Shown here: positions 4,023 to 53,245 of the stretch, piece after piece | Layout: each line of letters begins with the position of its first letter | How positions within the stretch are numbered: position 1 is the first letter of the stretch | From: an uncultured Bacilli bacterium | GTDB taxonomy: Bacteria; Bacillota_I; Bacilli_A; RF39; UBA660 | DNA length: 64,000 bases | Assembly: GCA_944350445.1 (NCBI GenBank) | Contig: CALVOW010000002.1 | Span: 5,636-69,635 of the forward strand | Direction of reading: 5' to 3' | Position numbers and translations under genes: made by a program | The notes under the pieces: generated by a model | What the model was told of the DNA's origin: nothing | Databases searched by the model: none | Seen by the model: the letters and a program-made list of their open reading frames with translations, nothing else

Positions 4023-5042
4023 ATGAAGTGTGTAAAAATTAAGGGGGAAAAAAGATTAGAAATTGCAACTATAAAAAAACCAGTTTCTAAAAATGGTTCG
4101 GTTATAATTAGAGTGAAAGCTTGTGGAATTTGTGGTTCAGATTTACATTACTTTGAAGCAGGAGAACCTTTAGAACTTATTATGGGCCATGAGTTTGCTG
4201 GAGAAGTAGTTGATCCAGGAGATAGAAGTGATTTAAAAGTAGGGGATCGAGTAACTGGATTACCAATTTCTCCATGTTTGGAATGTAAAGCGTGTAAAAC
4301 GGGAAATGTCCAGTATTGTTCGAAAACTTGGCAAGATGCCGTTGGTTTATCATTAACAAATTCTGGTGGTTTAGCCGAATATTTAAGCTGTCGAAGTGAT
4401 ATGGTAAAAAAGATTCCTGATAAAGTTACCTTTCAAGATGCAACACTTGTTGAACCATCTGCTGTATCTTTACATGCTATTAATTTAGCTAATATTAAAG
4501 TAGGCGATAAGGTTTTAATTATTGGTGGAGGAATTATTGGTTTAATGGCAGCTGAGTTTGCTAAATTAAATGGAGCCTCTTATATAGCCCTTATGGAAAC
4601 CAACATGAAAAGAGCTCGGAAAGCTTTAAAATATGGGGCTATTAATGAAATATTTAATGCTAGTGATACCAATGTCATTTCCAAAGCTTTGAAAAAAACT
4701 AATGGGGGATATGATAAGGTAATTGAATGTTGTGGTAATCAATATGCCGTAAGTGAAGCTATAATGAGTGTAAAACCTGGAGGAACAATTGTGTTAGTTG
4801 GTGTTTCTATGACCCCAATTAATGTTCCAATGGTAGCCTCAGTTATGCGTGAGGTAACCATGAAAGGTGCTATTGCTTATACAGAAGCAGAATTTGAAAC
4901 TTGTATTGAATTAATTGAAAAGAAAATTATCAATGTTCACAAATATATTGATAAAAGAGTAAATTTAGAAAAAGTTCAAGAAGCTTATTTAGATTTAATA
5001 AGTGGAAAAACTGATAATATAAAAATTATTGTAAAACCATAA
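4023..5042 (+). CDS. Zinc-dependent alcohol/polyol dehydrogenase (MDR family)
   Basis: CGICGSDLH, GHEFAGEV, structural-zinc cluster CLECKACKTGNVQYC, and a GGGIIGL Rossmann motif. Confidence 0.85.
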   Translation: MKCVKIKGEKRLEIATIKKPVSKNGSVIIRVKACGICGSDLHYFEAGEPLELIMGHEFAGEVVDPGDRSDLKVGDRVTGLPISPCLECKACKTGNVQYCSKTWQDAVGLSLTNSGGLAEYLSCRSDMVKKIPDKVTFQDATLVEPSAVSLHAINLANIKVGDKVLIIGGGIIGLMAAEFAKLNGASYIALMETNMKRARKALKYGAINEIFNASDTNVISKALKKTNGGYDKVIECCGNQYAVSEAIMSVKPGGTIVLVGVSMTPINVPMVASVMREVTMKGAIAYTEAEFETCIELIEKKIINVHKYIDKRVNLEKVQEAYLDLISGKTDNIKIIVKP

Positions 5043-5051
5043 AAAAGAAAT

Positions 5052-5125: not shown

Positions 5126-5471
5126 TGGTGGAGCTGGGGAGAGTTGAACTCCCGTCCGAAATTAATGATAAATAAACTTCTACAAGGTTAGTTAATTCTT
5201 TAAATTCATTAGGAAATAAGCGAATTAACAAACATAAACCTAACTAGTTTAGTGAATTTCGTTATTACTCCTAAACAAAGCAATAATATAATCTACTAAA
5301 ATGAACTCTTTCAAAGATTCGTAGATAAAATCTTTGAAGAGTATTCGCTATTATTAAATTAAGCGAATGCTAATTTATTATTGTTTCCAGTTATATTTAA
5401 CTGATTATTTAACGCATAAGTGCGCCTTGCTATTTAAGTTCAGTTAATTCCGTCGAAACCATTACAGCCCC
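5126..5471 (-). ncRNA. ssrA: tmRNA (SsrA)
   Basis: Minus-strand 5' end GGGGCTGTAATGGTTTCGACGG and 3' end GGACGGGAGTTCAACTCTCCCCAGCTCCACCA. An internal tag frame ends ...GGA AAC AAT AAT AAA TTA GCA TTC GCT TAA (..GNNNKLAFA*). Confidence 0.9.
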
Positions 5472-7575: not shown

Positions 7576-7652
7576 GGGCGATTAGCTCAGTTGGTTAGAG
7601 CACCTGCCTTACAAGCAGGGGGTCATAGGTTCGAGTCCTATATCGCCCACCA
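7576..7652 (+). tRNA. tRNA-Val(TAC)
   Basis: Hand-folded cloverleaf: acceptor GGGCGAT/ATCGCCC, anticodon loop CTTACAA, TTCGAGT T loop, encoded CCA. Confidence 0.9.
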
Positions 7653-7655
7653 TTT

Positions 7656-7731
7656 GCCGAAATAGCTCAATTGGTAGAGCAATTGATTTGTAATCAATAG
7701 GTTACGGGTTCGATTCCTGTTTTCGGCACCA
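7656..7731 (+). tRNA. tRNA-Thr(TGT)
   Basis: Acceptor GCCGAAA/TTTCGGC, anticodon stem ATTGA/TCAAT, loop TTTGTAA, CCA. Confidence 0.9.
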
Positions 7732-7736
7732 GTTAT

Positions 7737-7820
7737 GGAGAGATAGCGAAGTGGCTAAACGCGACAGACTGTAAATCTGTTCCTTCGGGTTCGATGGTTC
7801 GAATCCATCTCTCTCCACCA
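7737..7820 (+). tRNA. tRNA-Tyr(GTA)
   Basis: Acceptor GGAGAGA/TCTCTCC, anticodon stem ACAGA/TCTGT, loop CTGTAAA, long variable arm, CCA. Confidence 0.9.
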
Positions 7821-7825
7821 CGTAT

Positions 7826-7900
7826 TGCCTCGTAGCCAAGTGGTAAGGCACGAGACTTTGACTCTCGCATGCGCTAGTTCGAATCTAGCCGAGGCAACCA
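7826..7900 (+). tRNA. tRNA-Gln(TTG)
   Basis: Acceptor TGCCTCG/CGAGGCA, anticodon stem CGAGA/TCTCG, loop CTTTGAC, CCA. Confidence 0.9.
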
Positions 7901-7908
7901 GTTATTAT

Positions 7909-7984
7909 GTCCCGTTAGCTCAGTAGGTAGAGCATTTGACTTTTAATCAAAGGGTCGTGAGTTCGAATCTCGCACGGGACACCA
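7909..7984 (+). tRNA. tRNA-Lys(TTT)
   Basis: Acceptor GTCCCGT/ACGGGAC, anticodon stem TTTGA/TCAAA, loop CTTTTAA, CCA. Confidence 0.9.
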
Positions 7985-7996
7985 TTTTAAATATGT

Positions 7997-8085
7997 GCCT
8001 GAGTGGCGGAATAGGTAGACGCACAGGACTTAAAATCCTGCGAGCTTTAAAACTCGTGTCGGTTCAAGTCCGATCTTAGGCACCA
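7997..8085 (+). tRNA. tRNA-Leu(TAA)
   Basis: Acceptor GCCTGAG/CTTAGGC, anticodon stem CAGGA/TCCTG, loop CTTAAAA, long variable arm, CCA. Confidence 0.9.
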
Positions 8086-8092
8086 TTTTATT

Positions 8093-8185
8093 GGAGGAAT
8101 ACCCAAGTCCGGTTGAAGGGATCGGTCTTGAAAACCGAGAGGTCGCGCAAGCGGCGCAGGGGTTCGAATCCCTTTTCCTCCGCCA
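8093..8185 (+). tRNA. tRNA-Ser(TGA)
   Basis: Acceptor GGAGGAA/TTCCTCC, anticodon stem TCGGT/ACCGA, loop CTTGAAA, long variable arm, CCA. Confidence 0.9.
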
Positions 8186-8195
8186 AATTTTATAT

Positions 8196-8272
<77 letters not shown>

Positions 8273-8277
8273 AATAT

Positions 8278-8353
8278 GGTCTCGTAGTGCAGTGGTTACC
8301 ACGTCTGCCTGTCACGCAGAAGATCGCGGGTTCAATCCCCGTCGAGACCGCCA
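8278..8353 (+). tRNA. tRNA-Asp(GTC)
   Basis: Acceptor GGTCTCG/CGAGACC, anticodon stem TCTGC/GCAGA, loop CTGTCAC, CCA. Confidence 0.9.
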
Positions 8354-8362
8354 TTTTTTTGT

Positions 8363-8438
8363 GGCTCTGTAGCTCAGTCGGTAGAGCAAGGGACTGAAAA
8401 TCCCTGTGTCGGTGGTTCGATTCCACTCGGAGCCACCA
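8363..8438 (+). tRNA. tRNA-Phe(GAA)
   Basis: Acceptor GGCTCTG/CGGAGCC, anticodon stem AGGGA/TCCCT, loop CTGAAAA, CCA. Confidence 0.9.
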
Positions 8439-8447
8439 TTTATAGAT

Positions 8448-8524
8448 GCGCTCGTAGCTCAATTGGATAGAGCGTTTGGCTACGGACCAAAAGGCTATGG
8501 GTTCGACTCCTATCGGGCGCACCA
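8448..8524 (+). tRNA. tRNA-Arg(ACG)
   Basis: Acceptor GCGCTCG/CGGGCGC, anticodon stem TTTGG/CCAAA, loop CTACGGA, CCA. Confidence 0.9.
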
Positions 8525-8546
8525 TTTTATATTTTTATATTATTGT

Positions 8547-8623
8547 CGGGAAGTGGCTCAACTTGGTAGAGCACTTGGTTTGGGACCAAGGGGTTGCAGG
8601 TTCAAATCCTGTCTTCCCGACCA
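8547..8623 (+). tRNA. tRNA-Pro(TGG)
   Basis: Acceptor CGGGAAG/CTTCCCG, anticodon stem CTTGG/CCAAG, loop TTTGGGA, CCA. Confidence 0.9.
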
Positions 8624-24395: not shown

Positions 24396-25532
24396 TTATA
24401 AATTGTTTAAAATATCTATTATTTCATCTTGTATAGTAGGGAATAAATGCATATATGTTGTTTGCATAACATTTATTGTGTGTCCCATCCGATTAGACAT
24501 TATTAAGAAGAATTTTGCTGTATCTATTTTAACGTTTTTTTCTTTACTATTTTTTATATATTCATTTATTAATAAACTAACATGTGAATGTCGAAATTCG
24601 TGTATTGTTATAGCTTTAATCCCACTTAATTTAAAATAATAATTTTTATATCTTGTAATAGTTGTATCTGGCAAAAATCTTGTATTTCCAAAAACAAACC
24701 ATTTTTCTTTAAAATCGGAATATTTACTGACTTCGTTTTTATATTCGACAAGTTGGTTATATAATAAATTATTCATTTTTACTTTTCTATTTTGATTATT
24801 TTTAGTTGAGGTAATTTTAAATTCTTCTTTGGTTTTAGTAGACAATGTTTTATTTACGATTACTTCGGAATTATTAAAATTTATATCATTCCAAGTTAAT
24901 GCCTGTACTTCTCCTTTTCGCATACCGGTATAATATAAGAACATAAATAGGGTTTTATACATGGAATTATCAATTACTGAAATAAATTTGTTAAATTCTT
25001 CAAGAGTTATATATCTTATTTTCTCAGAGTCTTTTTTTATTTCTTCATTTTTAGATTCGAAAGGACCTATCTGTTGTACAATGTTAATTCCTAATCCGTA
25101 GTTAACGATAGCATAATTAAAGATACTTTTTAAAATTACATAAAGTTTATTTAAATAATTTAATTTTAAGCCTTTTTTTTCCATTTCTAGGCGCCAATTC
25201 TTTATTGTAGATATATTTATATCTTTTATATTAAAGTGTTCGAAATATGGCTTTATATTAACGTTATAAGCATTTTCGTAACAATACACCGTTGATTCTT
25301 TTCTTTTTTTATACATTTCTATGAAATAGGCTTTTGCTATTAAACTAAATGGTTTACTAATAGGATTATCTCTTTTCATAATAAATAAAGCTTCTTCTTC
25401 AAGAGCCTCTTTTTTTGTGAAGTATTTTTTAGACTTATGTGCCTTATTATTTCCGTTAAAATCTTTTTTATAAACCTTAAAAAACCATTGTCTTCCGTCC
25501 TTTGTAGGTGTTTTACTCTTATAAACAGCCAT
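24396..25532 (-). CDS. int: Phage tyrosine integrase
   Basis: 378 aa: MAVYKSKTPTKDGRQWFFKVY... (SAM-like N-domain), box I ...TGMRKGEVQALTWNDI, box II ITIHEFRHSHVSLLI, catalytic Tyr in ...QTTYMHL. Confidence 0.9.
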   Translation of the reverse strand: MAVYKSKTPTKDGRQWFFKVYKKDFNGNNKAHKSKKYFTKKEALEEEALFIMKRDNPISKPFSLIAKAYFIEMYKKRKESTVYCYENAYNVNIKPYFEHFNIKDINISTIKNWRLEMEKKGLKLNYLNKLYVILKSIFNYAIVNYGLGINIVQQIGPFESKNEEIKKDSEKIRYITLEEFNKFISVIDNSMYKTLFMFLYYTGMRKGEVQALTWNDINFNNSEVIVNKTLSTKTKEEFKITSTKNNQNRKVKMNNLLYNQLVEYKNEVSKYSDFKEKWFVFGNTRFLPDTTITRYKNYYFKLSGIKAITIHEFRHSHVSLLINEYIKNSKEKNVKIDTAKFFLIMSNRMGHTINVMQTTYMHLFPTIQDEIIDILNNL

Positions 25533-38385: not shown

Positions 38386-38997
38386 ATGATTAAAAAGGAA
38401 ATATATCCTAAAACTAAAAGAGTTAGCAATTTAGGTGATAAGATTTTTATAACTGAAAAATTAGATGGAAGTAATTTAGTATTTTTTAAAAAAGATGATG
38501 AATTATATATCGCTCAAAGAAAAAATATATTAAAATTTAGTGAATTAGAAGAAAATAAAGGCATTTTATATAAAGGTTTGTATCAGTGGTTAAAAGACAA
38601 TTATGATGCTTTAAATGATTTACATAACAATAGTGCAATATGCGGCGAGTGGTTAGGTATGGGATGTCTTAAATATACAATAGATGAGTTTGATAAAAGA
38701 TGGTATATGTTTGCTAAAGCTAATATAGATGACGATTTTAATTTGTATAATTTAATGTATGATCATGATTTGTTTATTTATTCATTTCAAAGTCAAGAAA
38801 TGCCTAATTTTATTGGAATAGTTCCGGAGGTAGCAGAACTAAATGTTTTGCCAAATAAAGAACATTTAGATAGCATTTATGAAAAATATTGCAAAAAAGT
38901 AGGTAGAAACGTTGAAGGTTTTATTGTTAATTATAAGAATATAATTTCAAAATATGTTAGGATGAAAAACGGTAAGTTACAAGAGCATCACGAATAA
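38386..38997 (+). CDS. RNA ligase-family nucleotidyltransferase
   Basis: Motif I ITEKLDGSN (KxDG), CGEWLG, motif IV-like VEGFIV, and a C-terminal KYVRMK. SD GGAGAG, 9 nt, ATG. Confidence 0.65.
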   Translation: MIKKEIYPKTKRVSNLGDKIFITEKLDGSNLVFFKKDDELYIAQRKNILKFSELEENKGILYKGLYQWLKDNYDALNDLHNNSAICGEWLGMGCLKYTIDEFDKRWYMFAKANIDDDFNLYNLMYDHDLFIYSFQSQEMPNFIGIVPEVAELNVLPNKEHLDSIYEKYCKKVGRNVEGFIVNYKNIISKYVRMKNGKLQEHHE

Positions 38998-39952: not shown

Positions 39953-40339
39953 ATGAAATATATAATAAAAATAATGATTAATCAATATAATGTTAAAAAT
40001 ATTGATTGGATGGGTTATAAACTTAATAAAGATAATCCATACACCTATCATCATATCGTAAAAAAAGAACATGGCGGAGAAGAAACAATTGAGAATGGAG
40101 CGATTCTAACAAAGATAGCCCATGAGTATTTACACAAAATAGAATGCAAGGATATAGAATTGTATAACTATATTAACAACGTATTAAAACAAATTAATGA
40201 ACAAGGGTTTGGACCTTTAAAAAGACAATTGCTAGCCATCGATTTTATTTTAAAGATGTTTGAAAAAGAGCATTTCGGTGATAGTACCAAAAAGGGTAAA
40301 GTTTTGATAAAAAATGAATATTTAAAAAGAGATTTTTAA
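39953..40339 (+). CDS. HNH endonuclease
   Basis: ...YTYHHIVKKEHGGEETIENGAILTKIAHEYLH is an HNH motif. Immediately upstream of the terminase genes. Confidence 0.8.
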   Translation: MKYIIKIMINQYNVKNIDWMGYKLNKDNPYTYHHIVKKEHGGEETIENGAILTKIAHEYLHKIECKDIELYNYINNVLKQINEQGFGPLKRQLLAIDFILKMFEKEHFGDSTKKGKVLIKNEYLKRDF

Positions 40340-40364
40340 GACTTGTTAAAACAAGTTCTTTTTT
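40340..40364 (+). terminator. Rho-independent terminator after the HNH gene
   Basis: ACTTGT-TAAA-ACAAGT followed by TCTTTTTT. Confidence 0.6.
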
Positions 40365-40368
40365 ATAT

Positions 40369-40443
40369 CGCAGGGTGGAGCAGTAGTAGCTTACGAGTCT
40401 CTTTAGCTCGTGGTCGTAGGTGCAATTCCTACCCCTGCAACCA
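40369..40443 (+). tRNA. Phage tRNA with anticodon CTT and initiator-type identity elements (non-canonical D/T loops)
   Basis: 75-nt cloverleaf with standard arm lengths and encoded CCA. Acceptor CGCAGGG/CCCTGCA with C1xA72, G2:C71, C3:G70, A73. D stem GAGC/GCTT (A11:T24). Anticodon stem CGAGT/GCTCG, loop CTCTTTA. T arm GTAGG-TGCAATT-CCTAC. Confidence 0.55.
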
Positions 40444-40468
40444 GAAGTCAATTAAGGAGGTGGTATCG

Positions 40469-40819
40469 AAGCAAAGAAAATTTAAAAATAGCAAAGAATT
40501 TTACAATAAATTTAAAGAGTATGTAGTCTATTGTAAAAAGGAAGAAAGATTGCCTAATATTGCAGGTTTTTGCGTCTATTGCGATATAAATAGAGATACT
40601 TTTTACGCACAAGAAGAACTATATTCCGACACTTTTAAAAAAATAAATGAAATTTTAGAAGATGAGGCTTTAAATAATAAGTTTTTAAATGATGCTAGAA
40701 TTATTTTTTACATGAAAAATAAATGTGGTTATAAGGATAAACAAGAAATCGATACCACTTCTTCTAATAAAATTACAATAATCAATGATTTACCAAGTGA
40801 TGGCAATGAAGATAAGTAG
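40469..40819 (+). CDS. terS: Terminase small subunit; proposed AAG start
   Basis: ..QRKFKNSKEFYNKFKEYVVYCKKEERLPNIAGFCVYCDINRDTFY is a typical TerS N-terminal HTH region. AAGGAGG (40454-40460), 8 nt, AAG 40469. The only in-frame canonical codon (GTG 40460) abuts the SD. Further upstream the frame runs through the tRNA and the terminator. Confidence 0.6.
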   Translation, partial: KQRKFKNSKEFYNKFKEYVVYCKKEERLPNIAGFCVYCDINRDTFYAQEELYSDTFKKINEILEDEALNNKFLNDARIIFYMKNKCGYKDKQEIDTTSSNKITIINDLPSDGNEDK

Positions 40820-42170
40820 TCAAATAGCACCATCATTTTATAAGACTTTTAATAGTTATAAAACTCACCAAATATATAATGGAGGTCGTGGCTCTACTAA
40901 AACATCAATGATTAGTTTAAAAATCGTTTATAATTGCCTAAAAGAATATAATTGTTCAGTTGTGGTTTTGAGAAAACATCAAAATCAGTTAAGAAAGTCA
41001 GTTTATAAAGAGATAAAAAGAGCGTGTTCAAGACTTGGTCTTGTTGATGGTGTTCATTATAATAGCACGGTTTCGCCGATGGAAATAAAATTTCTACAAA
41101 ATGGAAATACAATTTATTTTGCTGGCGGTGATGATTTTGAAACAGTGAAGGGAACAATAGACGAAAATAAGTTAATTAAAATTGTGTGGTTTGAAGAATT
41201 GACGGGTTGGGATAACTCAGAAGATATAGATCAAATAGTTGCCACTTTTACAAGAGGAAATAACGATTGGTTTATGGCTTTATACTCCTATAATCCGCCA
41301 AAAAACAAATTCGCATGGATAAATAAATGGTGCGAGTCTATGATGTTGAGAGACGATTATTTAGTTTCCGAAACTGATTATAGAACAGTACCAGAGAAAT
41401 GGTTAGGCAAAATGTTCATTGATGAAGCAGAGAGGATGAAGAAGTTCGATAACAAAAGGTATAGATGGATATATCTAGGTGAAGTCATTGGGATGGAAGG
41501 CATGATATACAATCCAGAAACAATAGAATATGTTGATAAAGACTATATATCTAAGAATAACCTAAGAATACTTTACTTAGACTTTTCAGTCGATGGTGGT
41601 CATCAAACGAGTGCTACTACTTGTGGATGTTTCGGATTAGCAAATGACGGATATTGGTACTTATTAGATACTTATTATTATTCTCCAAATGAAAAGCCTA
41701 AAAAGAAAGCACCAAGTGAACTATCGAAAGACATATTTAATTTTGAAATAGCAATGATTAAAACGTGGAAATGCGCCGAAGATAAAGAGACTATAGATAG
41801 TGCAGAAGGCGCTTTACGAAATCAGTTGTATACCGATTATGGCAAGAGATTCCATCCTGTTAATAAAGGAAAGAATAAAGAAGAACTGATTGATTATTCA
41901 CAAGCCTTTCTAGCAAAAGGAAGATTTAGAGTGTTATTAAACAACAATAATAAGATATTTAAAAAAGAAAATGAAAATTACATGTGGAAAGAAGGTACAG
42001 TTGAAAAAGGTAAGCCTGAGCCTGATAAAACGGAGAAAGAGTTTATTGGCGAAGAGCCTTACTACAACAGTTGGTCTAATGATTACAGTTATTACTATGC
42101 CGATCATACACAAGATGTTTTCCAATACTGGGTAAGAGATAATTTAAGCAAATTAGGAATAAAGGAGTAA
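40806..42170 (+). CDS. terL: Terminase large subunit (PBSX-type)
   Basis: ...YNGGRGSTKTS is a Walker A-like motif, followed by a nuclease domain. 454 aa. ATG 40806 overlaps the terS end. Confidence 0.85.
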   Translation: MKISSQIAPSFYKTFNSYKTHQIYNGGRGSTKTSMISLKIVYNCLKEYNCSVVVLRKHQNQLRKSVYKEIKRACSRLGLVDGVHYNSTVSPMEIKFLQNGNTIYFAGGDDFETVKGTIDENKLIKIVWFEELTGWDNSEDIDQIVATFTRGNNDWFMALYSYNPPKNKFAWINKWCESMMLRDDYLVSETDYRTVPEKWLGKMFIDEAERMKKFDNKRYRWIYLGEVIGMEGMIYNPETIEYVDKDYISKNNLRILYLDFSVDGGHQTSATTCGCFGLANDGYWYLLDTYYYSPNEKPKKKAPSELSKDIFNFEIAMIKTWKCAEDKETIDSAEGALRNQLYTDYGKRFHPVNKGKNKEELIDYSQAFLAKGRFRVLLNNNNKIFKKENENYMWKEGTVEKGKPEPDKTEKEFIGEEPYYNSWSNDYSYYYADHTQDVFQYWVRDNLSKLGIKE

Positions 42171-42172
42171 AT

Positions 42173-42499
42173 ATGATGAATGACTTAATTAATATAATAA
42201 ACAATATAGATTGGCAAGGAATTGCTAATGAAATAAAAAAGTTGCAAGAAGAGAATCAAAGATTAAAAGCAATGATAAATGGCTTTCTAAATGGTGTAGA
42301 AAAAGATAAAAATGCAAAAGAAGTTAAAATATTTCACGTATGCAAATATACATCGTTATTAAATGAATATCAGAGATGGTTAGAAAAAGAAAAAGAAGAA
42401 AAATATAGAGATTGTGGAATTACTCAAAAAGCTATAACAAAATGCTATGAGAAATTAATAGAGTTAAGAAAAAAATATGAGGAGAGTAATATAAAATGA
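42173..42499 (+). CDS. Hypothetical coiled-coil protein
   Basis: 108-aa ORF with SD AAGGAG. Confidence 0.5.
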   Translation: MMNDLINIINNIDWQGIANEIKKLQEENQRLKAMINGFLNGVEKDKNAKEVKIFHVCKYTSLLNEYQRWLEKEKEEKYRDCGITQKAITKCYEKLIELRKKYEESNIK

Positions 42500-42573
42500 G
42501 TGATGCAGTAATAATTACATTGATAATTTGTATAACATTAGTAGGTTTAGCTTGGGTAGGCAGAGATAAGTGA
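42496..42573 (+). CDS. Possible 25-aa hydrophobic peptide
   Basis: ATG overlaps the upstream stop. MSDAVIITLIICITLVGLAWVGRDK. Very short, so low confidence. Confidence 0.25.
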   Translation: MSDAVIITLIICITLVGLAWVGRDK

Positions 42574-42585
42574 GGAGTGATTTAA

Positions 42586-44064
42586 AAGGAATTATATCAA
42601 GATATACAGAGTAAATTAAGCAAAAAGGGTATAAATCTAGTAGTTGGCGATATTTACGATATGATGGCTATATGGAAGTCGTGGTATCGTGGTAATGTTA
42701 ATGACTTTCATTATTTTCAAATGAAGATGGCAGATGGTACTACTAAAAAATGTGAAAGACTTACTATGAATATGCCTAAAAAAGTATGTGAAGACTTTGC
42801 TAAACTGCTATGGTCAGAAAAGGTGCAAATAAAGCTCGATAAGAAGAAAAACACTGAAAGACTACTAGAAGTATTAGATAGCAAAGAAAACAACTTTAAA
42901 GTTAACTTTCCTAACTTTTTAGAACGTGTTTTTGCTTTAGGAACTGGTGTTACTGTAGAATACCGTAAAAATGAAAAAACTCTTATCGATTATGTTGATG
43001 GTGATGTGGTTATTCCATATATGTACACTAATAGTTATATAAATGGTTTAATTACTGTTAGTAGATTTACGAAAGGTACTGATACTAATAAAAAATACTT
43101 CACTCATATTACTTATCATGAATTTAAAGATAATAAATATACAAAATTGAACGAACTCTATAAATCTAGTAATGAAACAACTGTAGGAAAAGAAGTTAAC
43201 TTCAATGATATGTTTCCTAATGTTTTAGAATTTGAAGAGTTTGAAACAGATAATCCTCATTTTCAAGTATGGAAGCCTGCAGTTGCTAATAATTTTGATA
43301 CAGATAGTCCAATGGGATTGTCTATACTTGCCAATCAAATTGATAAGTTTAAGGCTATAGATACAGAATATGACAGCTTTAATCGTGAGTTTCGAACTGG
43401 TAAGAAAAGAGTTCTGATTAGTAAAGAGGCAGTAAAGAAACATTATGTGCCTGATCCAGAAAAAGAAGGAAAAGTTAATTTAGTTAGTTATTTTGACAAT
43501 AATGATGAAGTATATGTAGCTATTGCAGGGATGGAAGATCAACCTGTTAAAGAAATCGATTTTAACTTGAGATATCAAGAACATATCAGTTCAATAAATG
43601 CTCAGTTGAATTACATTAGTGCAGGTGTTGGTTTAGGGCAGAACTACTACAACTTTGATGGACAAGGTGTTAAAACTGCTACTGAAGTAGTATCAGAGAA
43701 TAGCGACACTTATAGAACTAAGAAACATCATGAATTAATGGTTAATGACTGTCTATATGATTTGATTAACGCGATATGTGAGCTTGAAAATATTCCTTAT
43801 AAATCAATTAATATAGTTTTTGACGACTCAATTATCGAAGATGAAAATACATTAATTAAGAGAGGGTTAGAGCTATATCAAAATAAAGTTATTTCACTTG
43901 AGAAATTTATGCAAAAATATCTACATTACGAAAACAGTGAAATTCAAGAAGAAATAGCAAAAATCCAAAACGAAAACAAGTTAGTTCAACCTGAAGGTAT
44001 GGACTTTTTTGGTATGGAACAAGATGTAGAACCACAAGAAACAGAAGTAGTTGAAAAAGGGTGA
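42586..44064 (+). CDS. Portal protein (SPP1 Gp6-like); proposed AAG start
   Basis: About 490 aa, between terL and the MuF-like gene. GAGGAG (42572-42577), 8 nt, AAG 42586. In-frame TAA at 42583. The first ATG (42661) has no SD. Confidence 0.65.
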   Translation, partial: KELYQDIQSKLSKKGINLVVGDIYDMMAIWKSWYRGNVNDFHYFQMKMADGTTKKCERLTMNMPKKVCEDFAKLLWSEKVQIKLDKKKNTERLLEVLDSKENNFKVNFPNFLERVFALGTGVTVEYRKNEKTLIDYVDGDVVIPYMYTNSYINGLITVSRFTKGTDTNKKYFTHITYHEFKDNKYTKLNELYKSSNETTVGKEVNFNDMFPNVLEFEEFETDNPHFQVWKPAVANNFDTDSPMGLSILANQIDKFKAIDTEYDSFNREFRTGKKRVLISKEAVKKHYVPDPEKEGKVNLVSYFDNNDEVYVAIAGMEDQPVKEIDFNLRYQEHISSINAQLNYISAGVGLGQNYYNFDGQGVKTATEVVSENSDTYRTKKHHELMVNDCLYDLINAICELENIPYKSINIVFDDSIIEDENTLIKRGLELYQNKVISLEKFMQKYLHYENSEIQEEIAKIQNENKLVQPEGMDFFGMEQDVEPQETEVVEKG

Positions 44065-46969: not shown

Positions 46970-48106
46970 AAGGCAAATCCAATTGGTTTAAATGGTACTC
47001 ACGAAAGACAAGAAAGATATGCTAGTCAAATTGTTAAATTAATGAGACCTTACTTCAGAATTAGAAGTACATTTTCAAGAGATTACGAAGGTAATCCAAC
47101 AGCTGGAGCAGTTAAAGTCCCAGTAAGAAACATGGACGTAAATGTTCGTGATTATGATGTTAAAAATGGTTTAGCATTAGAGCAAAGTGCTACAAACTAT
47201 CTAAATATCCCTATCAATTTTAATAAAGGTATTAATGAGTTAATTGATGGATATGAAGCAGCAGCAGTTCCTGATAACTTAATGGCTCAAAGAATGGAGA
47301 GCGCAGCTTATTCTTTAGCTAAAACATTTGAGGAAGATGCTATTAACGCATTAGTAAGTAATTCTACAGTATCTACTCAACCAGATGGAACTGTAGATAA
47401 TATTTATATGAATATCGTCAAAGATATTGCTCAATTAGCTAAACGTGGTGTAGATAAGAATAGAATGTATGTTGCTGTATCTTACGCAACTGAAGCTTTA
47501 TTACTTGCTAACCCAGTATATGCTAATACTTCATCACAAATTGGTGCAGAATTAGCTAGAAATGGTGTTGTTAACAGAATCAATGGTGTTAATATTATTA
47601 CTCAAGACTTGGGAGAAACAGAAGACGGACAAGCAATTGAATATATTGTTTACGGTGTTGACTGGACTCAAGCTATTGACGAGTGGATGGTTAATCCCGT
47701 TGTTGTTGATTTAACTACTGGATCAAGCGAATATATCGGTGCTAGTGCATTAAAAGGACGTATGGTTTATGCTGATGCTGTAACTGATAAAAACGCAGTT
47801 ATTGTTAAGGCTAAAGTTAGTGTATCTGCAGTAGAAATTACACCAGTTGCTGGTTTATCTGGAACTTTAGCAGATTCTACTAAAGTAGCAGATTTAGATA
47901 GCGTAGGTGGCAGTGGAACTGTAACTTATAGCTTACCAACTGGCGTAGCTGATAATGATAAGTTTGAAATTAGTACAAATACTGTAGTAACTAAGGACGC
48001 TACTACAGGTCCAGGTACTTATACTATTGTAGTAAAAGGAACTGATACAGCAAGCAATACAGCATCTGCAACTGCTGTTATTACAGTAGCAGAAGCTAGT
48101 GAATAA
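46970..48106 (+). CDS. Major capsid protein with C-terminal Ig-like domain; proposed AAG start
   Basis: GGAG (46956-46959), 10 nt, AAG 46970. In-frame TAA at 46967. ATG 47042 has no SD. The N-terminal ..ANPIGLNGTHERQERYASQIVKLMRPYF..SRDYEGNPTAGAVKVP looks like one continuous coat-protein N-terminus. Confidence 0.65.
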   Translation, partial: KANPIGLNGTHERQERYASQIVKLMRPYFRIRSTFSRDYEGNPTAGAVKVPVRNMDVNVRDYDVKNGLALEQSATNYLNIPINFNKGINELIDGYEAAAVPDNLMAQRMESAAYSLAKTFEEDAINALVSNSTVSTQPDGTVDNIYMNIVKDIAQLAKRGVDKNRMYVAVSYATEALLLANPVYANTSSQIGAELARNGVVNRINGVNIITQDLGETEDGQAIEYIVYGVDWTQAIDEWMVNPVVVDLTTGSSEYIGASALKGRMVYADAVTDKNAVIVKAKVSVSAVEITPVAGLSGTLADSTKVADLDSVGGSGTVTYSLPTGVADNDKFEISTNTVVTKDATTGPGTYTIVVKGTDTASNTASATAVITVAEASE

Positions 48107-49675: not shown

Positions 49676-50125
49676 AAGGCACAATACGAAAGTTCAGTTA
49701 AACAATTTAAAGTTCAATTTGATTTAAGCGAGAATGAGACTCCAGATTGGGAGGATCTAATCGCTTTAACTATGTCATATGATCAAAGTGAAACTCTTGA
49801 TACGTGGCAAGATTTATATAATTTCTTATCTAATAACGTAAAAACCGGATTAGACCCAACATGGTCAGTATCTGTTAAATTAGATAAATCAAGTCCAGTT
49901 TGTCAATTCATTTTAGATAAAGAATTTGCAGTAGGAGCAGAAGCAACTGCTAAATGTAAAATTATTAATTTACTTAAAGGAACGAGTGGTAAACAGATTG
50001 AATTTACTGCTACTTTAAGTTCAATTGCGTATGAAGCTACTGCCGAAGAAGTGTTACAAGTAGATTTTGATTTAAAAGTTTATGATAATTCTACATTTGA
50101 AGAAACAGATTACACAGCAGGGTAG
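49676..50125 (+). CDS. Major tail (tube) protein; proposed AAG start
   Basis: The position directly before the chaperone pair fits a tail tube gene. AAGGAG (49662-49667), 8 nt, AAG 49676. In-frame GTGs at 49658/49667 lack a spaced SD. Confidence 0.55.
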   Translation, partial: KAQYESSVKQFKVQFDLSENETPDWEDLIALTMSYDQSETLDTWQDLYNFLSNNVKTGLDPTWSVSVKLDKSSPVCQFILDKEFAVGAEATAKCKIINLLKGTSGKQIEFTATLSSIAYEATAEEVLQVDFDLKVYDNSTFEETDYTAG

Positions 50126-50167
50126 GCTTTAGTGTCTACCCTTTATTTTTTTAGGAGGAAGAAAGAA

Positions 50168-50596
50168 ATGTTAACATTAACTAGAAAAAAATATGAAATA
50201 GAGGAGCCTATTCGTTTAGAAGATGAAAATGGAAACTTACTATATGAGTTCACAATGCAAATTACTGCAGAGGAAAAAAATAGGATACGAGATTTAATAT
50301 TTTCGCAAGAAGATGTGAAAGATGGTAGAAATTTATCTAAATTGGAACGTGAAGGCAAAATTGATGAAATGAACGAATTAGAATTGGAAATTTTAGAAAA
50401 AGCTAAAAAACGTCAAGAAGAATTTGAGAATATTTGCTTTAAGGAGCATAAAGAACCATTTAAAGAAAAAGCTGGTGCTAAATATGAAGAAATGGTTGAA
50501 ATGTTATTCGATTTTTTCGTAAAAGCCTTCGCAGACAAGAGAATATCACAGATAAATACTATCAATTCACACCTTCGCAAGATTACAAACAATTAA
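50168..50596 (+). CDS. Tail assembly chaperone (G-like)
   Basis: AGGAGG, 9 nt, ATG 50168. 142 aa, acidic. Lies between the tube and tape-measure genes. Confidence 0.65.
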   Translation: MLTLTRKKYEIEEPIRLEDENGNLLYEFTMQITAEEKNRIRDLIFSQEDVKDGRNLSKLEREGKIDEMNELELEILEKAKKRQEEFENICFKEHKEPFKEKAGAKYEEMVEMLFDFFVKAFADKRISQINTINSHLRKITNN

Positions 50597-51147
50597 ACCT
50601 TTTAAGAATAGATGATAAAGAATATAAGCTTAATATTACATTTAAATCCGTCTTAAAAATATTTAATTTAATAAAAGATGATAGAGTAGCAGAGTGCTTA
50701 AATATTTTAGGCATTAATGATTTAACTGAAGAAGAACAGATTTTTGTTTTAAATGAAATTGCTGAATATGTATTTAATACAAATAAAAAAGTATCTTCTA
50801 GTAAAAAAACGTTTGATTTAAACTTGGACTACAAATATTATTTTGTAGACTTTTTAAATTTTGGGATAAATCTTAATACAGATGATGTTCCATGGTGGGA
50901 GTTTGACGCGATTTTAGAGGCTATTATGCTCGATGATAAATCTACAATATCAAAAGTATTAAGTTATAGATTATATGAAAAACCACCAAAAAATGCAAAA
51001 GTTCAAGAAGATAAGCGACATAGGTTTATGATGGAAATGAAAAGAAAATATTCTTTACCCGAAACGTTAAGTCCTGAACAAAGTTTAGAAAAATTATGGA
51101 ATTATGCGGAAAAAAAGGCAGGTGAAAGTAAAAGGATGGAGAAATAA
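50518..51147 (+). CDS. Tail assembly chaperone -1 frameshift extension (GT-like; Gp15-like sequence)
   Basis: The -1 frame is open from 50500 to 51147 and has no canonical start before TTG 50824. The slippery T TTT TTC at 50512-50518 is in X XXY YYZ register with the G frame. Confidence 0.55.
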   Translation, partial: RKSLRRQENITDKYYQFTPSQDYKQLNLLRIDDKEYKLNITFKSVLKIFNLIKDDRVAECLNILGINDLTEEEQIFVLNEIAEYVFNTNKKVSSSKKTFDLNLDYKYYFVDFLNFGINLNTDDVPWWEFDAILEAIMLDDKSTISKVLSYRLYEKPPKNAKVQEDKRHRFMMEMKRKYSLPETLSPEQSLEKLWNYAEKKAGESKRMEK

Positions 51148-51152
51148 AATTC

Positions 51153-52883
51153 AAGGTTTCATTAGATGGAAATGAAGCTGAAAAAACAATTAGCACGTTA
51201 TCGAAAAGTTCTGATACATTAAGTAAAAAAATTACTTCTTTTGGAACGAAAATGACAATAGGAGTAACAGCACCATTGACTGCATTAGCAACCGCAGGCG
51301 TTAAGTATAATGCAACAATGGAAACTTATCTAGCTAATTTAACAACATTGTTAGGTGGAAATGAACAAGCTGCAGAAGAACTTCTTAATACATTAAGAGA
51401 AATGGCTAATACAACTCCTTACGAAGCGACTGACTTAGTTAAAGCCACACAAAAAATGATGGCTTTTGGAATTAGTGCACAAGATAGTTTGAAATACTTA
51501 CAAATGCTAGGTGATGTCGCCATGGGTGATGCTAACAAAATGGATAGCTTAACGTTAGCATTTTCCCAAATTAGTGCAAGTGGTAGAGCCACAATGGAAG
51601 ATATTAATCAAATGATAGATCAAGGATTTAACCCACTTACAATTGTTGCACAAAAAACAGGAGAGAGCATGGCTGATTTAAGAGATAGAGTATCTGCTGG
51701 CGGTGTGTCCTTTGAAGAAATAGCTGGAGCGTTCGAAACAGCCACTAGTGAAGGTGGAATATTCTATCAATCAATGGATAAAGCTTCACAGACCACAGAG
51801 GGAAAGATTTCGTCGTTAAAAGATAATTTTAGTACTGCTTTAGGAACAATGACTGAAAGTTTACTTCCATTTGTAACTAGTGCTGTTGATGGCTTATCTA
51901 AACTTGCAAATTGGTTTTCAAACTTAGATGAAGGTGGGAAAACATTAGTTTTAACTATCGCTGGAATAGCTCTTGCGATAGGGCCTCTAAGCACAGCTAT
52001 TGGTGGTTTAATTTCCATCGGCTCTAAAATTAAAACAATAGTTACTGTCGTTAAATCTTGGGGAATAGTGACTAAAACTATGACTGCAGCCCAAACTGCA
52101 CTTAATTTGGTATTAAATGCTAATCCAATCGCGCTAGTTGTAACAGCAATTGTTGCATTAATTGCAATTATTGCAACATTATGGTCTAAATGCGAATGGT
52201 TTAGGGATGGCGTAATGACCGTTATAAATGCCATATGGGGAGCTATACAGTCAGTAGGCTCTTTTATTATGGGCGTGTTCCAGAACGTATTTAACTTTGT
52301 TTCTGGAATATTTACAAATTTATGGAACGTTATTCAAACAGTAGTAAATACGATAGTGTCTATCTTTTCAACTGCGTGGAACACTATTAAGAATGTCGCA
52401 ACTACTGTTTGGAACGGTATCTTAGGTTTATTTAGCGCTGGTGGTAAGATTTTTACTGGTGTAGTAGAAGGTATTGCCGGAGTATTTAAAACTATAGTTA
52501 ATGCAATTATTAAAGGTATTAATAAAGTAATAAGAATACCGTTTGACACAATAAATGGTATTTTAAACTTCATTAGAAACATAGATATTTTAGGAGTTGC
52601 TCCTTTCAAAGGACTATGGAAACAAAATCCACTTCCAGTTCCTCAAATACCAACTTTAAGTGTTGGTACAAATTATGTTGCAGCAGAAGGATTGGCATAT
52701 CTCCATGAAGGAGAGGCGGTTGTTCCTAAAAAATATAATCCTGCTGTTGGAGGCGGAATGACTATAAATTCTCCGATTGTTGTCGAAGTTTATAACGATA
52801 ATGTATCAACTCTTCAACTAGATAGTAAAACAGTCGCAGAGGTCGTAAATAAATATAATGAAAATAGAGAGGTGGCGGTTTAA
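51153..52883 (+). CDS. Tail tape measure protein; non-canonical start (AAG 51153 or AAG 51132)
   Basis: TP901-type core (..EATDLVKATQKMMAFGISAQDSLKYLQMLGDVAMGD..) plus hydrophobic repeats. The frame is open from TAA 51129, and there is no ATG/GTG/TTG before ATG 51252. Yet ..IKFKVSLDGNEAEKTISTLSKSSDTLSKKITSFG.. looks like a TMP N-terminus. Confidence 0.7.
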   Translation, partial: KVSLDGNEAEKTISTLSKSSDTLSKKITSFGTKMTIGVTAPLTALATAGVKYNATMETYLANLTTLLGGNEQAAEELLNTLREMANTTPYEATDLVKATQKMMAFGISAQDSLKYLQMLGDVAMGDANKMDSLTLAFSQISASGRATMEDINQMIDQGFNPLTIVAQKTGESMADLRDRVSAGGVSFEEIAGAFETATSEGGIFYQSMDKASQTTEGKISSLKDNFSTALGTMTESLLPFVTSAVDGLSKLANWFSNLDEGGKTLVLTIAGIALAIGPLSTAIGGLISIGSKIKTIVTVVKSWGIVTKTMTAAQTALNLVLNANPIALVVTAIVALIAIIATLWSKCEWFRDGVMTVINAIWGAIQSVGSFIMGVFQNVFNFVSGIFTNLWNVIQTVVNTIVSIFSTAWNTIKNVATTVWNGILGLFSAGGKIFTGVVEGIAGVFKTIVNAIIKGINKVIRIPFDTINGILNFIRNIDILGVAPFKGLWKQNPLPVPQIPTLSVGTNYVAAEGLAYLHEGEAVVPKKYNPAVGGGMTINSPIVVEVYNDNVSTLQLDSKTVAEVVNKYNENREVAV

Positions 52884-53245
52884 AGGATAATGTATTACAA
52901 ATTGGTAGTACTCCTATTAAGTTTTTGCAAAAAAACGGATATGGGTTAAAGGAAGATCAAGATATTGTACTTAGTACTTTAACTATGGCCGATGGTACAG
53001 AACGTAGGAACATTGCCGAAAAGAAAAAAGTTACTATAAGTTTGAAATTTACAAAAATTGATGGAAATACACTTTCAAAATATTTACTCTTAATGGATAA
53101 TGACTTTAAAGCAACATATTATTCAGTTAAGTATAAAACTACAAAAACAGCCACTTTTCGTTTAACAGAAAAACCAACCACCGAAATGATAGGCACATAT
53201 TTAGACATTTTAGAAGAATTTGAAGTCACCTTGGAGAGTGTATAA
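52883..53245 (+). CDS. Small tail protein downstream of TMP; proposed AAG start
   Basis: GAGG (52869-52872), 10 nt, AAG 52883, overlapping the TMP stop (TAAAG). In-frame TAG at 52865. The first canonical codon, TTG 52925, has no SD. Confidence 0.5.
   Translation, partial: KDNVLQIGSTPIKFLQKNGYGLKEDQDIVLSTLTMADGTERRNIAEKKKVTISLKFTKIDGNTLSKYLLLMDNDFKATYYSVKYKTTKTATFRLTEKPTTEMIGTYLDILEEFEVTLESV

Follow-up and report, generated by a model that had tools for sequence, protein, structure and literature searches.

A prophage within a 64,000-nucleotide stretch of DNA from an uncultured Bacilli bacterium (GenBank assembly GCA_944350445.1, contig CALVOW010000002.1, positions 5,636 to 69,635; hereafter the window) carries, just upstream of its small-terminase gene terS, a transfer RNA (tRNA) that combines the body of a bacterial initiator tRNA with the anticodon CUU, the complement of AAG. 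Six late genes of the prophage, terS among them, have a strong Shine-Dalgarno sequence (SD), then AAG at a spacing of 4-10 nt, and no usable canonical start. We consider, with a probability of roughly 0.85, that the element is a phage-encoded initiator tRNA(CUU), probably charged with lysine, which would open a separate initiation channel for late genes. Comparison with related phages makes it likely that a clade of temperate phages of gut Bacillota practises natural orthogonal initiation, in which a virus-encoded initiator(CUU) would serve a late regulon of AAG-start genes (terS, portal, capsid and tail). Bacterial translation relies on a single initiator tRNA species with the anticodon CAU. 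To our knowledge, all natural start codons are read by this CAU initiator, and initiators with a changed anticodon have so far been confined to synthetic biology.

A conserved and structurally constrained tRNA

ARAGORN called a tRNA-Lys at exactly positions 40369-40443 of the forward strand, with the anticodon ctt at its position 33 (40401-40403). The Rfam tRNA model RF00005 aligned end to end (model positions 1-71 of 71) with 49.2 bits against a gathering score of 29 (E=5.9e-10 locally), and the sole non-standard pair was 1:72. The arms are acceptor CGCAGGG/CCCTGCA, D stem GAGC/GCTT, anticodon stem CGAGT/GCTCG with the loop CTCTTTA, and T arm GTAGG-TGCAATT-CCTAC, followed by an encoded ACCA end. 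The tRNA finder and the covariance model thus both call the complete cloverleaf with an encoded CCA that the initial annotation had drawn by hand, and all of its arms proved correct on the sequence.

The first relatives came through terS in IMG/VR: the closest two (loci L001 and L002) have a tRNA-like sequence followed by GGAGGTGGTATC(G)A-AAG, and 16 more distant terS relatives are without the tRNA and have ATG, TTG or GTG at the aligned position. Searches of viral, genome and metagenome collections with degenerate patterns gave a family of 19 distinct tRNA sequences from gut prophages and viral contigs, one of which (L098) is identical to the window tRNA. The sources are metagenome-assembled genomes labelled Bacilli, Tenericutes, Clostridia, Gastranaerophilales and Candidatus Coprosoma intestinipullorum (Bacillota), and gut-type metagenomes. 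Most pattern matches in the metagenome and genome collections were ordinary CAT initiators with a chance GGTGGTAT, or coding sequence, and were removed by inspection. The exact window tRNA sequence, used as a pattern, had no match in viral contigs; INPHARED held nothing similar to the 1.4-kb tRNA/terS region and no member of the CTT type, the consensus matching only tRNA-Met genes there. The tRNA-bearing phages form one clade, in which identity of the large-terminase gene terL is at least 67%, against at most 63% otherwise.

Stem statistics were computed on the 16 members that align cleanly, with L001, L030 and L033 handled apart. In these 16, pairing extends to 95.2% of stem cells and fails only at C1·A72, the D, anticodon and T stems being paired to 100%. 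Compensatory double changes occur in 10 of the 21 stem pairs; none of 500 shuffles reached the observed score, and alignments slid to other registers gave at most three such pairs. Given 18 further distinct homologues and compensatory covariation in all four stems, the window tRNA is far beyond chance, and 40369-40443 is confirmed as a real, selected tRNA. The suspicion raised initially that it might be decayed is not upheld: apart from 1:72 the stems are fully paired, and the odd loops vary in concert. A18G19 occurs with T54G55 in eight sequences and G18G19 with T54T55 in 11, with no mixed combination among the 19, which implies that the TGCAATT T loop and the GG-less D loop of the window copy are a tertiary variant of the elbow contact and not a sign of decay. 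In L001, L030 and L033, the acceptor/T stack is repartitioned into the C·A mismatch plus 7 bp, followed by a four-layer T stem, and the D stem is GUGU/GCAY; these three score 39.8-42.7 bits with RF00005.

None of the 19 sequences departs from the anticodon CUU, C1·A72, G2:C71, C3:G70 or A73, so that the unpaired 1x72 and the unusual anticodon, which the initial annotation had singled out for comparison among homologues, are both family traits. Moreover, when the anticodon arm was left free in the pattern, every tRNA adjoining a GGTGGTAT site still carried CTT.

Descent from the initiator tRNA

The family consensus agrees with the host initiator tRNA encoded in the window (8196-8272) at 65 of 77 positions, compared with 43-51 of 77 for the 13 other host tRNAs, including 50 for tRNA-Lys(UUU). 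For the window copy, the host initiator is likewise the best match of 14 host tRNAs (53/77, versus 42/76 for tRNA-Lys(UUU)). These values agree with the earlier view that the phage tRNA shares the pattern of the host initiator, whose sequence is as first described, and is unlike the host tRNA-Lys. Among the matches listed, all annotated nearest tRNAs in INPHARED are tRNA-Met of the initiator type, several others having no annotation.

The resemblance extends to the elements that define the class. As in host tRNA-fMet, the window tRNA has C1 opposite A72, G2:C71, C3:G70, A73 and A11:U24 (the last in 16 of 16 main-type members), just as claimed at the outset. G30:C40 is present in all 19 sequences and G29:C41 in 13, the window having A:U at 29:41; C32, U33, C34, A38, the variable loop and the T arm are also common to the family and tRNA-fMet, and the consensus is identical to the host initiator at stem positions 27-30 and 40-43. 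G30:C40 and G29:C41 are the initiator pairs contacted by A1339 and G1338 of the 16S rRNA (PMC11497404), and A37 is the partner in an initiator-specific base triple (PMC2528185); of these initiator loop residues, the family keeps C32 and A38 but generally not A37. The consensus differs from the host initiator by A35 to U, A37 to U, G31:C39 to U·G and G:C to A:U at 4:69. Hence the strict rule of three G:C pairs (29:41, 30:40, 31:39) does not hold for the family, in which 31:39 is U·G in 19 of 19 sequences. Position 37 is U in 18 of 19 and A in L138, so U37 is not obligatory, and pairing of U37 with the base at -1 of the start site found no covariation support, since L138 has A37 and yet A at -1. 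Taken together, these comparisons support derivation of the tRNA from bacterial tRNA-fMet with a change of anticodon from CAU to CUU. Because the methionine anticodon, the third G:C pair and A37 are lost, the element is better described as initiator-derived, or as a second initiator, than as tRNA-fMet. Unlike the host initiator, it is phage-encoded, stands at the head of a late operon and would serve only a subset of phage genes.

The ARAGORN label suggests a different identity. On this view the tRNA is an ordinary tRNA-Lys(CUU) elongator that adds to AAG decoding or stands in for a host tRNA-Lys cleaved by a defence nuclease, its neighbours start canonically (terS at the GTG inside the SD, portal and capsid at downstream ATGs), and the AAGs are plain lysine codons or untranslated. 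The anticodon and A73 fit lysine identity, and phage tRNA-Lys elongators do exist in tRNA arrays (L154 and L156). However, these genuine Lys(CTT) elongators have U1:A72 and A37 and are tRNA-Lys-like, whereas the family has an initiator acceptor end and body, an unpaired 1:72 without exception, and U37 in place of the purine expected for an ANN-reading elongator. On 1:72, position 37 and overall similarity, the window tRNA is therefore not an elongator tRNA-Lys.

Two other phage records carry initiator-type tRNAs with altered anticodons. The GC-rich contig L158 (IMGVR_UViG_2770939557_000001) encodes one at 4974-5049 on the minus strand with the loop CTCACAA and thus the anticodon CAC, cognate to GUG; it combines C1·A72 and G2:C71 with an anticodon stem GGG/CCC and the end GCAACCA, is labelled tRNA-Val by ARAGORN, and may represent another type of anticodon-variant initiator in phages. 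In L150 (MT835577.1, an unverified Bacteriophage sp. from human faeces), positions 2871-2947 hold an initiator-type tRNA (CGCGGGG...CCCCGCAACCA) with three G:C pairs, the loop CTCAAAA (anticodon CAA, cognate to UUG) and an imperfect T arm, for which decay of the copy or an error in sequencing could be responsible. The two hint that anticodon-variant initiators might be a wider phage strategy. In the host initiator itself, the T stem (GTAGG/CCTTC) contains a U50·U64 mismatch, and that of the phage family consensus is fully paired.

AAG at the start of terS

The CCA of the tRNA lies 25 nt upstream of an AAG at 40469, which follows GGAGG by 8 nt and is in frame with terS. The complementarity of the extended SD (Table 1) was judged against an assumed canonical Firmicute 16S rRNA 3' end. 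The arrangement is conserved: GGTGGTAT(C/T) is kept 3' of the tRNA in 18 of the 19 family members, and in 18 of 19 a spacer of 8-9 nt separates an SD (GGAGG, GGTGG or AGAGG) from the in-frame AAG of a terS gene encoding 116-153 aa. In viral contigs, the 16-nt ribosome-binding motif serves as a ribosome-binding site only beside the tRNA. Used alone, the motif GGAGGTGGTATCAAAG gave 13 extra matches, all in unrelated coding sequence (for example G-G-G-I-K-G), which were rejected as chance. The remaining member, L042, has the tRNA with a different type of terS that starts canonically, and its portal gene still starts at AAG.

The AAG aligns with the starts of terS genes from phages without the tRNA, L004 and L014 reading TTG CAA AGA where the window reads AAG CAA AGA. 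The proposed AAG start of terS 25 nt after the tRNA, already put forward from the sequence, is thus strengthened by relatives that have ATG, TTG or GTG at the same position. The terS genes of the family belong to at least two profile families, phrog_4102 and GP3_package, the latter with two very different N-terminal types.

Other starts for terS fare poorly. Upstream of the AAG, the single canonical codon is a GTG that forms part of the SD (spacing 0). L001 and L030 have this GTG in another frame, and in L033 it is blocked by an in-frame TGA directly before the AAG, so it was rejected as the terS start in these three loci; elsewhere the zero spacing makes it implausible. These three loci and the zero spacing also tell against canonical initiation as assumed for an elongator. 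The next in-frame canonical codon lies 15-78 codons downstream, beyond the conserved N-terminal motif, and near-cognate ATC and ATT codons are out of frame or immediately followed by a stop.

AAG starts in portal, capsid and tail genes

The initial annotation had confined the AAG start to terS, and this scope was too narrow: the portal, the major head protein, the tape measure and two further late genes also start at AAG (Table 1). In the portal gene, the phrog_533 alignment begins at residue 14, inside the 25 residues that would be lost if ATG 42661, which has no SD, were used. The aligned portal start is AAG in 16 of 16 tRNA-bearing loci (14 distinct contexts; the portals are as little as 66% identical), 15 of which have an in-frame TAA or TGA at -3, and ATG in 7 of 7 relatives without the tRNA. 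The N-termini correspond accordingly, K[EK]LY.DIQ..LSKKG in tRNA-bearing phages versus M[TA]IY.DLK.QL.KKG in the others. For the capsid, AAG is at the aligned start in all five tRNA-bearing loci that hold the gene, and the peptide KAN..NGTH.R is conserved 5' of the first ATG. For the tape measure, a start at ATG 51252 would cost the first 40 residues, the stretch in which alignments to PHROG tape-measure profiles begin (residues 4-17).

The remaining two genes encode a 149-aa protein at the position of a major tail protein and a 120-aa protein of the tail region. The former obtained no family assignment in Pfam and PHROG profile searches; its homologue in L022/L024 reads GGAGG, in-frame TGA, AAA, AAG. 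The AAG of the latter overlaps the tape-measure stop with its first base (TAAAG).

The AAGs of portal, capsid and tape measure follow directly upon in-frame stops and precede peptides aligned by homologues or profiles, so these residues must be translated from AAG. This is hard to reconcile with a tRNA acting in elongation beside canonically started genes, and we regard the elongator identity as the least probable of the readings weighed here.

Standard ORF (open reading frame) calling mis-starts the AAG genes, making the portal 25, the capsid 24 and the tape measure 40 codons short; terS is either truncated or given a TTG start whose frame runs through the tRNA. With such errors at 40469, 42586, 46970 and 51132 and at homologous sites, public protein sets of this phage clade are probably wrong at the N-termini.

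Ahead of the portal, a 25-codon ATG ORF at 42496-42573 on the plus strand encodes the hydrophobic peptide MSDAVIITLIICITLVGLAWVGRDK between the gene for a 108-aa protein and the portal. It shares the portal frame, with TGA, three sense codons and TAA before the portal AAG. Termination-reinitiation from this ORF was set aside because the portal would still need a start codon.

Table 1 Features of the window discussed in the text, in window coordinates
Feature	Position	Strand	Remarks
Host tmRNA	5126-5471	-	tag GNNNKLAFA; upstream of prophage
Host cluster of 12 tRNAs	7576-8623	+	upstream of prophage
Host initiator tRNA	8196-8272	+	
Integrase	24396-25532		start of prophage, beside tRNA-Ser
RNA ligase gene	38386-38997	+	PF09414, E=8e-12; 1.4 kb upstream of tRNA(CUU)
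HNH gene	39953-40339		directly 5' of terminator-like hairpin and tRNA(CUU)
AT-rich hairpin, CTTGT-TAAA-ACAAG then T-run	40340-40366	+	read from sequence; follows HNH stop
tRNA(CUU)	40369-40443	+	ARAGORN, Rfam, family covariation, identity to host initiator
Extended SD of terS	40454-40464	+	AAGGAGGTGGT; 11 nt complementary to 16S rRNA 3' end, one G·U
terS	40469-40819	+	GP3_package, phrog_606 (Pfam and PHROG); inferred AAG start 40469-40471
terL	40785-42170		3' of small-terminase ORF, followed by SPP1-type portal
Portal	42572-44064	+	SD GAGGAGTGAT 42572-42581; in-frame TAA 42583-42585; AAG 42586
Major head protein	46970-48106	+	phrog_267; AGGAGAGTGAT, in-frame TAA at -3, AAG 46970
149-aa late protein	49676-50125	+	major-tail-protein position; SD AAGGAGTGAT, AAG 49676
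Tape measure	51132-52883	+	Pfam TMP_3; AGGTGA, in-frame TAA at -3, AAG 51132
120-aa tail-region protein	52883-53245	+	weak DUF6711 match; GAGGTGG, AAG 52883

Restriction of AAG starts to tRNA-bearing phages

All 61 sense codons were scanned for a strong SD, a spacing of 5-10 nt and an ORF of at least 80 codons without a usable canonical start. In the window, this strict filter returned ATG 17 times, AAG three times and GTG once, the other hits being the two codons that flank one AAG site; the six AAG genes comprise the strict-filter sites, terS and two genes that missed the filter for trivial reasons. In 177 kb of tRNA-bearing loci, the scan found 64 ATG and 26 AAG sites, the rest being mostly codons flanking AAG sites plus scattered codons found once or twice, and 70 kb of relatives without the tRNA gave 22 ATG, two TTG and no AAG. 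The tRNA and AAG starts thus occur strictly together. Within the window, the scan detected no AAG start in the host part or among early and lysogeny genes; the other genes for which an SD-backed start was found (late, early, lysogeny and host) use ATG, GTG or TTG, and some ORFs have no assigned start.

AAG starts also have a context of their own. Across 34 distinct sites in the family, A is found at -1 in 32 and T at -3 in 31, compared with 43 and 31 of 76 ATG starts, and SD complementarity averages 7.1 nt, against 6.0 nt for ATG starts in the same phages. AAG accounts for only 22% of the lysine codons in late genes, so that an ordinary lysine codon would often be AAA; yet AAA never occurs at the 14 distinct portal start sites.

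The longer SDs could also be taken to mean that the AAG starts are real and read near-cognately by the host tRNA-fMet at low output, with the tRNA(CUU) acting, for example, as a decoy for initiator-targeting nucleases or as an RNA-processing signal where the late transcript begins. Toxins that cleave the anticodon loop of the initiator, such as VapC, are known, and the anticodon stem-loop of the phage tRNA differs from that of the host initiator at 31:39 and 37. The position of the tRNA at the 5' end of the late operon would allow RNase P cleavage to set the 5' end of the terS mRNA. In E. coli, all codons give some initiation, and with the native initiator those outside AUG/GUG/UUG and AUA/AUC/AUU/CUG reach 0.01-1% of AUG (bioRxiv 10.1101/063800). 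Such values are hard to square with capsid and tail proteins needed in hundreds of copies. Moreover, the anticodon is the exact Watson-Crick complement of AAG across 19 diverged sequences, and relatives that lack the tRNA also lack AAG starts and have ATG at the same aligned portal sites. Selection on four stems, CCA and the determinants of formylation and EF-Tu exclusion is better explained by an aminoacylated, ribosome-bound tRNA than by a decoy. Near-cognate reading by the host initiator is, in our judgement, very unlikely.

A proposed initiation channel and the evidence against it

An initiator tRNA(CUU) would be made at the head of the late operon, probably on the same transcript as its client mRNAs, given that it lies 5-25 nt after a hairpin and T-run in most family loci and its CCA is 8-16 nt from the terS SD; promoter-like sites around the tRNA were as frequent as expected from shuffles. 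Both ends would be trimmed, the 5' end by RNase P on our assumption, a T preceding position 1 in the family loci seen; the CCA is encoded. Lysyl-tRNA synthetase (LysRS) identifies its tRNA by U35, U36 and A73. This set is present, next to C34, and the anticodon determinant A35 of methionyl-tRNA synthetase (MetRS) is lost, so the host LysRS would be expected to charge the tRNA; the lysine anticodon with A73 supports lysine charging and says nothing for an elongator function.

The tRNA might instead be an AAG-reading initiator charged with methionine or another amino acid, the proteins then starting with fMet as usual. The acceptor end is indeed of the tRNA-fMet type, and homologues have methionine at the aligned position. 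Against this, MetRS is known to rely overwhelmingly on CAU, the LysRS determinants are in place, and engineered anticodon-mutant initiators carry the amino acid of the new anticodon (valine for AAC; 10.64898/2025.12.21.695813), which makes charging with anything other than lysine highly improbable.

With lysine attached, the initiator could be formylated by the host formyltransferase and would be excluded from EF-Tu, in view of the intact C1·A72, G2:C71 and C3:G70. It would then enter the 30S P site directly, as tRNA-fMet does at starts set by an SD, and pair with an AAG located 4-10 nt after an unusually strong SD, the three Watson-Crick pairs satisfying P-site and IF3 proofreading. An engineered E. 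coli initiator with a CUU anticodon does initiate from AAG reporters (bioRxiv 10.64898/2026.04.16.719103). Because the host initiator reads AAG very poorly, synthesis of the six AAG-start proteins should require the phage tRNA, with an output set by the levels of mRNA and tRNA. The purpose we favour is a thresholded, phage-private channel for virion and packaging proteins that would suppress leaky synthesis and bind the late module to its tRNA. Alternative purposes are counter-defence against initiator-targeting toxins and incompatibility with competitors.

Several points weigh against this interpretation. Two classical initiator features are gone, namely the third G:C pair in all members and A37 in 18 of 19. 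In 15 of 18 loci, the GTG within the SD shares the frame of the terS AAG, which it precedes by 9 nt, as an elongator reading would prefer, and a GTG start is possible there for terS alone. The share of AAG among lysine codons, 22% in late genes, exceeds the 13% of the host, which favours an elongator and leaves room for an elongator function in addition to initiation. Lysine is said, from work of the RajBhandary laboratory, to be a poor substrate for the E. coli formyltransferase. For engineered initiators with mutant anticodons, charging and formylation are limiting (10.64898/2025.12.21.695813). The anti-SD sequence assumed here may not be the exact sequence of the host. Since the tRNA-bearing phages are one clade, the association of AAG with the tRNA may have a single origin rather than represent many independent events, and the whole case is comparative.

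Relation to known systems

The closest counterparts are engineered orthogonal initiators, mutants of E. coli metY with CUU (AAG), amber or AAC specificity, which follow the same design of an initiator body, a changed anticodon and an SD-backed complementary start. These are laboratory constructs, whereas the phage family is natural and conserved over a diverged clade; it has U31·G39 and U37 in addition and is tied to T at -3, A at -1 and a long SD. In crAss-like, Lak and other gut phages that recode stop codons, a suppressor tRNA alters a codon concentrated in late, structural or lytic genes (PMC10879173, PMC11210395). The likeness is an analogy in logic only: in both cases a phage tRNA with an altered anticodon would make late genes translatable only in the phage-modified state, and standard gene callers mis-annotate both systems. 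Stop-codon recoding, however, turns a stop into an amino acid during elongation, whereas here a sense codon would also be a start and internal AAG would stay lysine; the late ORFs are open in translation table 11 and the anticodon of the tRNA is that of a sense codon. Phage elongator tRNA-Lys genes are likewise phage-encoded, with a lysine anticodon and the same ARAGORN label, and differ in having 1:72 paired; co-occurrence with AAG starts is a trait of the family described here. A tRNA-Lys of phage T5 reportedly counters the PARIS defence.

Literature searches for natural initiator tRNAs of phages, for initiators with a CUU anticodon and for AAG starts in bacteria or phages found no natural precedent. 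If the interpretation is correct, AAG would be the first case in nature of a sense codon from outside the AUG family that acts as a dedicated start with its own initiator tRNA. Nature would already have built an orthogonal pair of initiator and start codon, with which phages separate their late proteome from host translation, and U31·G39, U37, the T-N-A-AAG context and the extended SDs would be evolution-optimised parts for orthogonal initiation. Gene callers would truncate or miss key structural genes of such phages. It would also become testable how far IF3, IF2 and the formyltransferase tolerate a lysine-charged initiator without the third G:C pair, and what benefit tRNA-gated virion synthesis brings.

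Genomic setting of the tRNA

The hairpin between the HNH gene and the tRNA is terminator-like and would form a boundary ahead of the tRNA. The consensus terminator scan did not call it at 40340-40366, where it has fewer than three G:C pairs. The RNA ligase gene upstream could be counted in favour of the elongator reading. Nevertheless, neither it nor the HNH gene is conserved with the tRNA across loci, the ligase recurring among tRNA-bearing loci in L028 only, and a link of either gene to the tRNA is not supported.

Two further observations concern the late region. Just 5' of the tape measure, a 215-codon open frame at 50500-51147 on the plus strand (region 50126-51147) overlaps the end of the gene at 50168-50596 and has no SD-backed start in its first 90 codons; this layout resembles the usual arrangement of a tail-chaperone G/GT programmed frameshift. 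Within the late region of the tRNA-bearing phage L033, positions 5303-5387 of the plus strand match the skipping-rope RNA (RF02924) with 50.1 bits against a gathering score of 36.7; at the gathering threshold, the window has no counterpart.

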